NCBI GenBank assembly: GCA_000989765.1
Contig: LBOW01000004.1
Location: 1-51,062 of the forward strand
Direction: 5' to 3'
Length of the DNA: 51,062 bases
Source: Candidatus Woesebacteria bacterium GW2011_GWB1_33_22
GTDB taxonomy: Bacteria; Patescibacteriota; Microgenomatia; UBA8517
In this document: one piece after another, positions 47,419 through 51,062 of the stretch
Layout of the letters: every line of letters begins with the position of its first letter
How positions within the stretch are numbered: position 1 is the stretch's first letter
Translations under genes and position numbers: made by a program
Notes under the pieces: generated by a model
What the model saw: only the letters and a program-made list of their open reading frames with translations
Databases searched by the model: none
What the model was told of the DNA's origin: nothing

Positions 47419-47979
47419 TTAAAGATTTACTTTTACAGATTTCATTTCATCAGAACTAACTTTCAAAAAATCTCCTGATTCAACTGTTTCCAAACCTTTT
47501 AGTTCTTCAAATTTAAATAGGTTAGCTATTATGTTTGTAGGAACAGTTGCCCTTTTGACATTGTAATCAGCTGTTAAGTCAATCAAAAGACGTCTTGAAT
47601 ACATGACTTTATCTGATGTATCTCGAAGTTCTCCCATTAAGTTTTCAACTACTGTATTTGCTTTAAGTTCAGGGTTACTTTCAACAACCACTCTAAGTCC
47701 TGATAATACATCAGAAATTTGTTTTGTTGCATCCTTTCCAGCTGAGACTAATTTTCTAGCTTCCGAGAGCATTTCAAGAATTCCTTTTTCGTGTGTTAAA
47801 TAACCTTTAACCGAGGCTTCAAGATTTGGTATTAAATCAGCTTGTCTTTTTAACTGGTTTCCAATTTCTTGGATTGATGCTTTAATTCTAGTTTTACTAG
47901 ATACAAAAAAATTATAAATTGAGACAACCCAAAAAATTACTAATGCTAGTAATCCTAATAATATATAAATAAAATTCAT
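47419..47979 (-). CDS. lemA: LemA family protein
   Basis: QLKRQADLIPNL, PELKAN, YN...PTNIIA; upstream of htpX. Confidence 0.93.
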   Translation of the reverse strand: MNFIYILLGLLALVIFWVVSIYNFFVSSKTRIKASIQEIGNQLKRQADLIPNLEASVKGYLTHEKGILEMLSEARKLVSAGKDATKQISDVLSGLRVVVESNPELKANTVVENLMGELRDTSDKVMYSRRLLIDLTADYNVKRATVPTNIIANLFKFEELKGLETVESGDFLKVSSDEMKSVKVNL

Positions 47980-49655
47980 TTAATATTCACCTCCTTCTTA
48001 AATTCTTCTAACTTCAGACAGTTTACTATATTTTTCTTCTCACACCAACCCCTTCTTGCAACATTTACTCCATATTTCATATTATCCATCATGGAAATTT
48101 CGTGAGTATCTGTACCAAGAGTTAATTTCACACCCAATTTAACAGCATCGCGGACCAAAGTGTCAGGTAAATCGAGTCTCATCGGATCTGCATTAATTTC
48201 CAAGAATTTATTATTTTTAAGACAGAAGTCAAAAATTTTCTCCCAATCAAGTTCAATTCCCTCTCTTTCGTTAATTTTCCGAGCACTAGGGTGAGCAAAA
48301 ATTAATGCTTTGGGGTAGGAGAGTGCTGTTAAAACTCTTTTGGTCATAGCATCTCTTCCTAGGTCAAAAACAGAATGAATTGATACTAAGGCAAAGTCAA
48401 GTGTATTAAGGCCTGCCTCAGGTACGGGTAAACTGCCATCTTTATTAATATCAATCTCAAGAGAATTGAATACTTTTATAGGCCAATTTCTTTCACGAAT
48501 ATATTCTTCTTTTGCTTTGAGTAAATCTGTTATTCGATTAAGGCTATGGCCTTTCTTACTTGGGTTATGTTCCGTGAAAGCTATGTATTCATAACCTAAC
48601 ACCTGTGCCCTATTCGCTATATCTTCTGCCGAGGATACTCCTAAATCATGACTTGTTTCAATATCGAAGTCTGAATGTATTTGAAGATCGCCCTTAATAT
48701 CTTCTTGTTTTACCAAAAGCGGTAGACCATTTGGTTTACCCTGAGCTTGCCGAAGGGACATTTTTATCTCCCCCATATCCTCCCTAAGTTCAGGTTCAAT
48801 ATAGTCTAGTCCTAAAAAATTATATAACTCTTCTTCTGTTTTAAAATTTTTATTAGGTTTAATACCATACTCTGAAAGAGAATATCCTTTGTTATGTGCA
48901 GATTCACGCAAAGCTATATTATGTTCTTTACTTCCTGTGAAATGTTGCAGGGCTGAGCCATATTGTTCTGAAGTTGTAACTAATAAATCAACCTGTACAT
49001 TATTTGGTAATAAAATAGAAGCTGTATGCTCCCCCGCCTCAATTACTTTTTGTGTTTTGGGATATTTTGTAAAATGTTTTATTATTTTTGCATTTTGATT
49101 TTTAAATTTTGATTTTACTAATATATCTATATCCCCTACCGTAGCTGTTTTTCTTCGTAGAGAGCCAAGACAATCTACCTTAAGTGTCTCAGGGCTTTCT
49201 TTTAACCATTCCATGACCTCAGAAGCTATATTTTGGGCATACGGGAGTGGGTGTCTTTTAGTTTTATTTATTACTTTATCAGCTTCTTTGAGTTTTTCTT
49301 TAATTTTTGATTTTGGTAGTTCTTTAAGCATTTTCATAGAAGTTTTAAGACCCACTTTAGGTAAGGCCATTAAAGTAAAGGCTTCTTTTGGAATTCCTTT
49401 CATTACCTCTTCAAAATGCCTGGATTTGCCTGTTTTAAATATTTCATCAAGGTAAGAAGCAATTGAAGGTCCAATTGATGGAACATCGGAAAGCTTTCCA
49501 TCATCCCACAAATCTTTAAGTTCTGAGGTTGAATGTTCTACTGCATCAGTAGCACGATTATAGGCAATAATCTGAAATTTGTATTTCTTTTCGTCTTTTA
49601 ACTGATAACTCGCAGCAACATTTCGTAGTAACTCAGCAATTTGAAGATTGGTCAT
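47976..49655 (-). CDS. polX: DNA polymerase X with PHP domain
   Basis: GSLRR...GDIDIL, FTGSKEHN, PELRE, PHP motifs, GTDTH. Confidence 0.93.
   Translation of the reverse strand: MTNLQIAELLRNVAASYQLKDEKKYKFQIIAYNRATDAVEHSTSELKDLWDDGKLSDVPSIGPSIASYLDEIFKTGKSRHFEEVMKGIPKEAFTLMALPKVGLKTSMKMLKELPKSKIKEKLKEADKVINKTKRHPLPYAQNIASEVMEWLKESPETLKVDCLGSLRRKTATVGDIDILVKSKFKNQNAKIIKHFTKYPKTQKVIEAGEHTASILLPNNVQVDLLVTTSEQYGSALQHFTGSKEHNIALRESAHNKGYSLSEYGIKPNKNFKTEEELYNFLGLDYIEPELREDMGEIKMSLRQAQGKPNGLPLLVKQEDIKGDLQIHSDFDIETSHDLGVSSAEDIANRAQVLGYEYIAFTEHNPSKKGHSLNRITDLLKAKEEYIRERNWPIKVFNSLEIDINKDGSLPVPEAGLNTLDFALVSIHSVFDLGRDAMTKRVLTALSYPKALIFAHPSARKINEREGIELDWEKIFDFCLKNNKFLEINADPMRLDLPDTLVRDAVKLGVKLTLGTDTHEISMMDNMKYGVNVARRGWCEKKNIVNCLKLEEFKKEVNIK
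48738..48757. repeat. REP-like insertion in polX (LRQAQG)
   Basis: ACCCTGAGCTTGCCGAAGGG, GC-rich, at the PolX/PHP junction. Confidence 0.6.
49085..49119. repeat. Heptamer array in polX
   Basis: TTTTTGC ATTTTGA TTTTTAA ATTTTGA TTTTACT, encoding KSKFKNQNAK. Confidence 0.6.
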
Positions 49656-49831
49656 CAAGAACCACGCTTAATTTCATCACTTTCAGGCACACTTGTTGGC
49701 ATATGTATAGATCCAATACCTTCCTTTTCTTTCCTTAATTTTTCATTTAATTCTTCTAAAGTTAGTCTTTCTCGTTGTTCTTGAAGAGAACCTTCTTGAA
49801 TATTTTTCTGTTCTGGTATTAAATTACCCAT
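49655..49831 (-). CDS. 58-aa hypothetical protein (not in ORF track)
   Basis: MGNLIPEQKNIQEG...IKRGS; TGATG overlap with polX; TAATAT 6 nt before the ATG. Confidence 0.55.
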   Translation of the reverse strand: MGNLIPEQKNIQEGSLQEQRERLTLEELNEKLRKEKEGIGSIHMPTSVPESDEIKRGS

Positions 49832-50096: not shown

Positions 50097-50393
50097 TGGC
50101 GGGATCGACGAGACTCGAACTCGCAACCTCTTCCGTGCAAAAAATCTTTCTGTTTCCAAAAAGCTTGGACTATCTCATCCCCGTTAGATGATAACACTAT
50201 CTCACGGGGCCAGGTATATAGTCTCTACACGTTTATCATTCGACTTCGCTCGTGACAAGTTGGTCAAACAAATTTAGCTCGGGATTATCATTTTAAAGAT
50301 TTCCCCGAATTAGCCTGGTTTACATCTAACTATTGCTAGAAAGAGCTGCCACTAAAGACAGGGAAGCGCTCTAACCAATTGAGCTACGACCCC
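50097..50393 (-). tRNA. tRNA-Asp(GTC), intron-split (exons 50393-50358 and 50137-50097)
   Basis: Joined exons give GGGGTCG/CGATCCC acceptor, CTTCC-CTGTCAC-GGAAG anticodon arm, TTCGAGT T loop, G-CCA end. Confidence 0.93.
50138..50357 (-). ncRNA. Group I intron (220 nt, no ORF) at anticodon position 35/36
   Basis: Exon ends in U, intron ends in G; P1 CUGU|C with GGCAG (U.G at splice site); P3 CCAGG/CCUGG; P7 AGAGACUA/GAUAGUCC; P8 CCCCGU/ACGGGG. Confidence 0.92.
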
Positions 50394-50439
50394 GCCAAGA
50401 ACTTTACAAACCAATTTTACTACAAAATACACTCAAACT

Positions 50440-50850
50440 CTACCAATAATAATTCTTGGCAAAAATTACACGGTTTTTTTGATTGTTCTTAGAATCAGCA
50501 ACTCGAATATTTAATTTTCTTTTGTTTAAAAATATACTCTTAGGAAAGTAACAAAGACGATCAATTTTTGGAATAAATACTACTAAGGCGTCAACTTGAT
50601 CATTTTGATATGTATGGACTGAGTTGTGTCGATCTATATATTCCAATTTAACCACAACTACACCACTGGAGTTTGAAGAAATTCCATCTGCATATTTAAC
50701 CTGTACTCGTATAATTTTTGAATCCTTATCAATTAATAAATCATATTTAGTGTCATAAAGGGGTCGGCTCGGGATGTAGCCTAATTCAAAAGCTCTTAAT
50801 TCTGCTTTACTTACTGCCAATTGTCCTTTAATGTTGGATGTAATTTGCAC
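50440..50850 (-). CDS. PD-(D/E)XK endonuclease, group I intron-associated (I-Ssp6803I-like) family
   Basis: KGQLAV, YDLLID...RVQVK, Y...VDALVVF. Confidence 0.82.
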   Translation of the reverse strand: MQITSNIKGQLAVSKAELRAFELGYIPSRPLYDTKYDLLIDKDSKIIRVQVKYADGISSNSSGVVVVKLEYIDRHNSVHTYQNDQVDALVVFIPKIDRLCYFPKSIFLNKRKLNIRVADSKNNQKNRVIFAKNYYW

Positions 50851-51024
50851 TAATTACATCATAAAGTATATTGACACCAGGTGCAAGCTATATACTTAGT
50901 TTCGATATCGTCGATCCCACATTGGAAACTGGGCACAAAAGCTATATTGAAATATATATTTTATATTGTGTAGGATCAGATACTTATTCGACATTGAATA
51001 ATGTCAATTTCAACAGGAGTTAGT

Positions 51025-51062
51025 ATGAAAAGTGAATTTGTGTGGGGTAAAATCAAACACCC
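51025..51062 (+). CDS. Start of a CDS running off the window
   Basis: AGGAG at 51015-51019, then ATG AAA AGT...; open to the window end. Confidence 0.35.
   Translation, partial: MKSEFVWGKIKH

Follow-up and report, generated by a model that had tools for sequence, protein, structure and literature searches.

To our knowledge, almost all known cases of free-standing homing endonucleases and of collaborative homing come from phages, and the one PD-(D/E)XK homing enzyme to have been characterized is encoded by an intron of a cyanobacterium. The psbA intron system of cyanophage has reportedly been named as an example of collaborative homing, and SegB of phages T4 and T6 is said to spread together with flanking DNA of transfer RNA (tRNA) genes; we know of no one-to-one match between nuclease lineage and tRNA, no replacement tRNA and no fossil half-gene architecture in the SegB system. 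One account describes collaborative homing as the convergence of a free-standing endonuclease and an intron lacking an open reading frame (ORF) on one site, the target of the endonuclease corresponding to the intron insertion site, and a reference title given there indicates that, for the only characterized member of the PDDEXK_5 family, the site of action is a tRNA gene's anticodon region (PMC3984707). A second source gives mobE of phage T4 with the nrdB intron as a phage example (PMC2790892), and a third places the SegB gene, which encodes a free-standing homing endonuclease of the GIY-YIG type, in a tRNA gene cluster (PMC13096335). Group I introns in the tRNAs of ultra-small bacteria such as the one considered here have been mentioned in passing (PMC8172020). 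Here we describe a PD-(D/E)XK nuclease gene that adjoins the intron-bearing tRNA-Asp(GTC) gene of Candidatus Woesebacteria bacterium GW2011_GWB1_33_22 (G000), an uncultured ultra-small bacterium with an assembly of 860 kilobases (kb) in 19 contigs (97% complete, ∼33% guanine plus cytosine). The window is the whole of contig LBOW01000004.1 (C4), 51,062 nucleotides (nt) long; other contigs of this genome are numbered with C, related genomes with G and extracted loci with L. We propose that the nuclease and its own tRNA-Asp constitute a homing cassette of a cut-and-replace kind, and that the intron is an optional part of it that confers immunity and hitch-hikes along; we give this reading about an even chance of being correct.

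The genes and motifs of the locus, with the basis of each assignment in brackets, are as follows.

50097..50137, minus strand: exon 2 of tRNA-Asp, 41 nt, CCA encoded (ARAGORN with introns allowed and sequence reading)
50138..50357, minus strand: group I intron, ORF-less, 220 nt, after anticodon base U35, last base G (RF00028 and sequence reading)
50358..50393, minus strand: exon 1 of tRNA-Asp(GTC), positions 1 to U35, 36 nt (ARAGORN with introns allowed and sequence reading)
50394..50439, minus strand: spacer of 46 nt from nuclease stop to tRNA, with a -10-like box TAGTAAAAT at 50414-50422 (read by eye)
50440..50850, minus strand: free-standing PD-(D/E)XK nuclease gene (PDDEXK_5, I-Ssp6803I-type), 136 amino acids (aa), GTG start, TAG stop (ORF list and PF11645)
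50858..50886, minus strand: putative nuclease promoter, TTGCAC (50881-50886), 17 nt, TATGAT (50858-50863), 7 nt to the GTG (read by eye)

The nuclease gene is the only ORF beside the intron, and its stop codon lies 46 nt before position 1 of the tRNA on the same strand. This placement, outside the intron, had been proposed in an initial annotation of the window, and the ORF list, the PF11645 match and ARAGORN all agree with it. The protein matches Pfam family PF11645 (PDDEXK_5) with 76 bits against a cut-off of 26.1, aligning residues 7-134 to profile positions 5-135 of 138, and is the sole PF11645 copy in the genome. Its only sequence match in the PDB is 2OST, the structure of I-Ssp6803I (E 3e-8), with the YDL and VQVK stretches of the two proteins aligned. 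An AlphaFold2 model (predicted local distance difference test, 82.8) retrieves chains of 2OST at Foldseek ranks 1-4 with template modeling (TM) scores of 0.69-0.76 (top about 0.75) at 22-25% sequence identity, and chains of SPARDA are found among the weaker fold matches. Residues E22, D37, Q50 and K52 are invariant across eight nucleases of the Asp lineage, and the matching residues of 2OST are presumably catalytic. Judging from sequence and modeled fold, the ORF is an intact free-standing I-Ssp6803I-type homing endonuclease gene of a lineage dedicated to tRNA-Asp(GTC), whose product would be expected to cleave DNA. The public record of a close relative of this nuclease is labeled Patescibacteria.

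The likeness to I-Ssp6803I, which belongs to the group I intron of Synechocystis tRNA-fMet, comprises the Pfam family, the fold (TM 0.75), a similar size and the aligned stretches, and both nucleases are linked to a tRNA gene with a group I intron in the anticodon loop. The gene described here differs in standing outside and upstream of its intron with a promoter-like motif of its own, and in its host, a tRNA-Asp of an ultra-small uncultured bacterium rather than a tRNA-fMet of a cyanobacterium; moreover, most near relatives of the nuclease adjoin intron-less tRNAs. As in phage collaborative homing, described in PMC3984707, a free-standing nuclease adjoins a gene with a group I intron that has no ORF and sits at the presumed target. 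Unlike the phage cases, the present one is chromosomal and bacterial and involves a PD-(D/E)XK enzyme and a tRNA gene, the partnership in its lineage is facultative, being present at 14 of 46 loci, and a complete replacement tRNA gene seems to be part of the unit. SegB is likewise a free-standing homing endonuclease encoded among tRNA genes, but it belongs to another nuclease family and resides in phage rather than in a cellular chromosome. Neither cassettes of this kind nor PDDEXK_5 genes adjoining tRNA genes were found described in the literature searched, which mostly leaves subscription journals uncovered.

ARAGORN, run with introns allowed, places a minus-strand tRNA-Asp(GTC) at 50097-50393 and finds an insert of 220 nt within it. 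The group I intron model of Rfam (RF00028) matches 50146-50373 on the same strand over its full length (model positions 1-253; score 86.7 bits, gathering threshold 50, E 3e-22), and the ORF list contains no ORF within the 220 nt, confirming the ORF-less tRNA-Asp intron of the initial annotation. The range given there, 50138 to 50850, covers a real feature and leaves out the 3' exon at 50097-50137. Read from the sequence, the P1 helix pairs exon CUGU plus intron c with intron GGCAG, splice-site U35 forming a U·G pair. As is usual for group I introns, the 5' exon ends in a U paired with G in P1 and the intron ends in G. Homologous introns are present at the same site in G002, G014, G021, G025, G027, G028, G350 and G226. 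Because the interrupted gene is the only tRNA-Asp gene that ARAGORN found in this 97%-complete genome, the intron presumably self-splices.

Between the last two codons of the nuclease and the tRNA, a box of the TAAAAT type is present in 33 of 37 Asp-lineage metagenome loci. In 19 of 39 such loci, TTGCAC is found in the 70 nt that precede the nuclease start, and the looser motif CTTGNNC raises this to 25 of 39. The spacer box and the TTGCAC/TATGAT pair may be promoters of the tRNA and the nuclease, respectively. Where the spacer is only 10-15 nt long (e.g., L092, L094, L103), the final Trp codon, the stop codon and the next bases read TGGTAAAAT, an extended -10-like box 9-12 nt before the tRNA, and the last nuclease codons may double as the tRNA promoter at these short-spacer loci.

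The position beside a tRNA gene is a property of the whole nuclease family. PF11645 proteins are encoded in 8 of 61 related genomes (G000 counted, and neither other genome of the genus) and in 21 of 401 genomes of the class (one of the three genomes of the genus). The genes of the class genomes lie 4-61 nt upstream, on the same strand, of tRNAs for Asp(GTC), Pro(CGG) (7 loci), Tyr(GTA) (5 loci) and Arg (2 loci). Two loci beside a tRNA-Ser cluster depart from this pattern, as do three weak matches with no adjoining tRNA (L058-L060); a scan of genome contigs with a single protein gave 4 loci and includes a fourth weak match, L043, again with no adjoining tRNA. A metagenome scan with a profile built from eight aligned Asp-type nuclease proteins yielded 80 loci. 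Seventy-five of these extend at least 100 nt downstream, and in 70 of the 75 a tRNA on the same strand follows within 200 nt; across the family the distance from nuclease to tRNA is 4-63 nt. Since 70 of 75 related loci share it, the position beside tRNAs is not due to chance. Clades of the nuclease protein tree track the identity of the adjoining tRNA, and all 46 Asp-lineage loci with downstream sequence (7 genome-derived and 39 on metagenome contigs, several being duplicates of one sequence) adjoin tRNA-Asp(GTC).

A further clade of the nuclease belongs to tRNA-Gly(CCC). It comprises 21 metagenome loci (L132, L136-L139, L141, L142, L144-L146, L149-L152, L154-L157, L160, L161 and L169) with 37-42% identity, located 25-41 nt, mostly 39-41 nt, upstream of the tRNA. 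A copy of the tRNA-Gly anticodon stem-loop precedes the nuclease start by 38-43 nt in L138, L142, L149, L155 and L160, its scores lying at the limit of what shuffled sequence gives. More distant members of the family (L133/L135, L143, L153, L164, L165 and L167) are situated inside dense arrays of many tRNAs that resemble phage tRNA clusters.

Nuclease and intron do not form an obligate pair, and the intron is probably an optional module of the lineage. Assigned by reading the exons, after intron-mode labels of ARAGORN had proved wrong, the adjoining tRNA-Asp is intron-bearing at 14 of the 46 Asp-lineage loci, always at the same site, and intron-less at 32; none of the 46 has the nuclease inside the intron, and the genome described here agrees in having the ORF upstream of exon 1. 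The intron also occurs without a nuclease gene in six relatives (G002, G014, G021, G025, G027 and G028), as determined by split BLAST matches and exon reading. No introns were found in the tRNAs of the Pro, Tyr, Arg and Gly lineages. The initial annotation had proposed co-occurrence of nuclease and intron across related genomes as a check, which the pair does not pass, and had stated that its idea would fall if the nuclease commonly sat beside intron-less copies of the same tRNA, which is the arrangement of the 32 loci. Intron states are clustered on the nuclease tree, with 5 changes versus 12 in shuffles, and our nuclease falls inside a clade of seven rows, all seven of which are intron-bearing.

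Alleles within the genus illustrate how the parts come together and apart. The tRNA-Asp of G001 is intron-less, has no nuclease and directly abuts its leader, and all 75 of its bases are identical to the G000 exons, which leaves the intron as the sole difference that could protect the G000 tRNA. G002 has an intron nearly identical to that of G000 except for two replaced peripheral segments, and the 76 nt upstream of its tRNA correspond to the spacer of G000 together with the final nine codons and the stop of the nuclease, with 100% identity at the protein level. It follows that the nuclease was deleted in G002. The G001-type leader is also found in G002, upstream of a 228-nt insert. Contigs from public groundwater runs contain the G000 form, and two of the four runs also hold another form, which matches it through the tRNA, the spacer and the adjoining 30 nt of the ORF before diverging at 50469, like the G002 allele. 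Intron-less tRNA-Asp genes sharing exon 1 occur in the same runs.

Traces of the nuclease 3' end were found upstream of three of the six intron-bearing, nuclease-less alleles (G002, G014 and G028) compared with one firm case (G010) among 22 intron-less alleles. Control flanks in the tblastn search for such remnants gave noise down to E ∼0.007, and only G002 and G014 were counted from it; a test at the DNA level added G028 and G010, and a low-complexity match in G033 was excluded from the count. The gene thus shows sporadic presence, one fixed site next to a conserved gene and decayed copies, the pattern by which a free-standing homing endonuclease gene is recognized.

The site at which a cassette enters appears to be recorded in fossil pieces of tRNA-Asp, which at several loci lie immediately ahead of the nuclease promoter and which we searched for by local alignment to tRNA-Asp against shuffled sequence (panel null maximum, 26). 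Locus L114 contains the 5' half of a standard tRNA-Asp, 35 nt long, in direct orientation and preceded by a -10-like box of its own, that ends at G34 (score 60) and runs straight into the conserved left-end motif of the cassettes; the break is one base from the intron site. L101 shows the same arrangement with a 29-nt 5' part (score 53), and decayed versions are present in L103 and L115. Live and dead tRNA have different D stems and anticodon stems at both L114 and L101. The intron-bearing sub-lineage instead carries an inverted 3' third of tRNA-Asp (T arm plus acceptor strand) 45-68 nt upstream of the nuclease start, scoring 45 in L096, 38 in L092 and 32 in L102, and less in L093 and L098. 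The corresponding element of the window is as follows.

50901..50918, plus strand: candidate fossil of the 3' third of tRNA-Asp (approximately positions 55-73), inverted relative to the live tRNA (local alignment)

No 5'-half fossil was found downstream of the live G000 tRNA or in the end of contig C1 (scores of 17 or less). These pieces look like scars of cassettes that landed in a resident tRNA-Asp in either orientation, with a break that would lie between the anticodon and the T arm. A break near the anticodon, as in L114, fits the action of the one characterized family member on the anticodon region of a tRNA gene, as worded in the reference title.

Combining these observations, we predict that the adjoining tRNA-Asp moves as one cassette with the nuclease gene and the promoter of the latter. 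The nuclease would cut a resident tRNA-Asp gene at its anticodon loop or close by, and the cassette would be copied or captured at the break, providing a functional replacement tRNA that is not cut. In G000 and the nearest sub-lineage, this replacement would consist of the native exons split by the intron at the presumed break site. An intron exactly at that site is likely to act as a shield and also to be carried along, and being ORF-less it could be copied into alleles that have been cut. Most other cassettes would carry an intron-less replacement in which base changes serve as an alternative immunity.

Several observations weigh against this reading. Five intron-less nuclease loci, representing three distinct sequences (G018 with its duplicates L108 and L109, L100, and L130), match the spliced exons of G000 over the stretch from the D stem's 3' strand to the end of the anticodon arm, and the model does not explain their immunity. 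Among the 61 relatives, the nuclease is at tRNA-Asp in 4 and the intron in 7, with both in 1 versus 0.46 expected if they were independent, and the clustering of introns on the nuclease tree is to be expected anyway because linked loci are co-inherited. Such counts on related genomes are small, and the genomes are not independent. G021 and G025 have the intron and no nuclease trace, the start codon of the PolX gene of G021 lying ∼20 nt from the tRNA; these alleles fit the expected products of short repair tracts, and an independent spread of the intron fits equally well. The presumed cut site depends on fossil ends that end-joining or later decay could have shifted. The candidate fossil of G000 scores 25, against a 99th percentile of 22 and a maximum of 26 in its own null, and is marginal taken alone. 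Upstream tRNA fossils above shuffles are absent from the genome-derived Pro, Tyr, Arg and Ser loci, and of 33 metagenome loci outside the Asp lineage just 3 drew a flag, at low scores of 16-28 that were not counted, so that no fossil stands above background in the Pro, Tyr, Arg or Gly lineages. A consensus promoter scan listed neither of the promoter-like motifs, and its total of 7 compares with a shuffle mean of 5.6. Finally, an apparent enrichment of unusual D arms at nuclease-linked tRNA-Asp genes was dropped as general evidence, having vanished against a class-wide baseline. Among the 61 relatives, a non-standard D arm is found in two of three intron-less nuclease-linked alleles versus one of 22 nuclease-less alleles. 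In the class, however, a standard-type match of at least 87 bits to the tRNA-Asp model is present in only 61 of 141 genomes (a tally in which one genome flagged as unpublished, G117, is counted and on which nothing here depends), and the top matches of 20 genomes in the next score tier include 14 tRNA-Asp genes, 11 of them with non-standard D arms. D arms are consequently retained only as the contrast between old and new tRNA within L114 and L101.

The main rival is that two independent selfish elements share tRNA-Asp, the nuclease recognizing a site that does not span the intron site (in the 5' flank, the acceptor or D arm, or the T arm), and that their meeting in G000 reflects coincidence and linkage; the intron would then give the allele no protection and would have no need of the nuclease. 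The predominance of intron-less loci in the Asp lineage, the six relatives with an intron and no nuclease and the near-random co-occurrence among the relatives are all as this explanation would have them, as is the nuclease of G018, L100 and L130 standing beside an uninterrupted anticodon arm identical to the G000 exons. Against it stand the L114 fossil ending at G34, one base from the intron site, the greater frequency of nuclease traces at intron alleles (3/6 vs 1/22), and a genus in which G001 lacks both elements and G000 and G002 have or had both. The one characterized family member, if the reference title in PMC3984707 is a guide, also cuts the anticodon region of a tRNA gene. We regard independence of the two elements as possible but doubtful.

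A stricter partnership, in which nuclease and intron are an obligate two-part unit, the nuclease mobilizing the intron and the intron being the necessary immunity, appears quite improbable. It would match collaborative homing as presented in PMC3984707, and it agrees with the uniformly intron-bearing clade of G000 and with exons identical to the empty G001 allele. As a general rule it is contradicted by the 32 loci beside intron-less tRNA-Asp, and further by at least five changes of intron state on the nuclease tree and by the Pro, Tyr, Arg and Gly lineages, which have no intron at all. The nuclease moreover lies upstream of exon 1, where the short conversion tracts of intron homing would miss it. 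The two-part homing unit of the initial annotation is thus divided: the pairing is not obligate, and the accompanying idea of tRNA-Asp as the target and of immunity through the intron gains indirect support from the L114 break, the G001-identical exons and the distribution of nuclease traces. It is very improbable that the gene is an immobile, domesticated or defense-type PD-(D/E)XK nuclease with a cellular role, for example through expression from the tRNA region, given that an intact ORF with conserved catalytic positions and the same-fold PD-(D/E)XK domains of defense systems, SPARDA being one of the weaker fold matches, must be set against its sparse distribution (8 of 61 relatives, 21 of 401 class genomes and one of three in the genus), decay remnants at the same site, fossil tRNA halves at the cassette edge and the lack of a conserved partner gene alongside.

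The gene next to the tRNA on the side away from the nuclease encodes a PolX-type DNA polymerase with a PHP domain (47976-49658, minus strand), and it neighbors tRNA-Asp in 13 of 17 related loci compared. The tRNA points toward the polymerase gene in some relatives and away from it in others, indicating that a small tRNA segment has been flipped during evolution. Inverted replacement under the cut-and-replace reading would give such differences in orientation.

The opposite end of the locus runs into repeated DNA.

50967..51062, no strand assigned: end of a ∼1.1-kb multi-copy repeat, probably outside the cassette (contig-end matches)

The last 96-99 nt of the window recur at seven ends of five other contigs of the assembly (both ends of C11 and of C2, and one end each of C19, C5 and C1). 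A 1105-nt contig in the public runs covers the repeat at a depth of 195 versus 27 for neighboring DNA (∼7x). The repeat breaks the assembly just upstream of the cassette, and a plus-strand ORF starting at 51026 reads into it. Synteny with the genomes G002 and G350 suggests that C1 joins C4, which would make C1:186904-187725 the probable neighbor of the window end. On this segment, ORFs of 60 aa and ∼131 aa lie between the repeat and a conserved leader on the side of a LysM gene; both are absent from G002, and neither of the two matched a Pfam family.

Further introns were encountered in the tRNAs of this group. A second group I intron of G000 is located at C3:38505-38710 (L003:1501-1706, plus strand; RF00028, 81.6 bits) in a tRNA with anticodon CAU that ARAGORN missed. 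An 83-aa GIY-YIG ORF (L003:1769-2020) begins ∼25 nt past this tRNA, and a divergent 226-aa helix-turn-helix ORF (L003:716-1396) lies upstream of it; both intron-bearing tRNAs of the genome thus have nuclease-like neighbors. The tRNA-Asn(GTT) genes of relatives (L029 = G018:C13; L015, L023 and L024) have group I introns after U35 with a similar P1, which suggests a single intron lineage serving tRNAs with GUN anticodons. Several intron-mode calls of ARAGORN were rejected. The 'tRNA-Ala(TGC)+intron' of L052, L019, L094, L096 and L098 is really tRNA-Asp with an intron, and the 'tRNA-Asp+intron' of L029 is really tRNA-Asn. A tRNA-Pro(TGG) with a 275-nt intron at C1 c[49172,49543] is false, being inside a 329-aa glycosyltransferase-like ORF on the opposite strand and without an Rfam match; tRNA-Pro(TGG) was otherwise not found in the G000 assembly.

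The enzyme family so far characterized from an intron-encoded cyanobacterial nuclease thus appears, in uncultured ultra-small bacteria, as chromosomal cassettes with lineages matched to single tRNA genes. Intron-aware tRNA calling mislabeled several of these genes, and cassettes that alter the sequence and orientation of tRNAs would affect annotation and completeness checks. As a tentative and unlikely generalization, the I-Ssp6803I-type (PDDEXK_5) family of ultra-small bacteria may consist of gene-drive cassettes, each lineage of which kills one tRNA isotype at the anticodon loop and installs an uncuttable copy, with introns kept and spread as immunity; tRNA introns, part of the diversity of tRNAs and their flips would then be products of an arms race. 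The empty, filled, decaying and fossil-bearing alleles provide a natural series for the joining and parting of mobile introns and nucleases, and they make directly testable the old idea that an intron can earn its keep by protecting the gene it interrupts against a nuclease.

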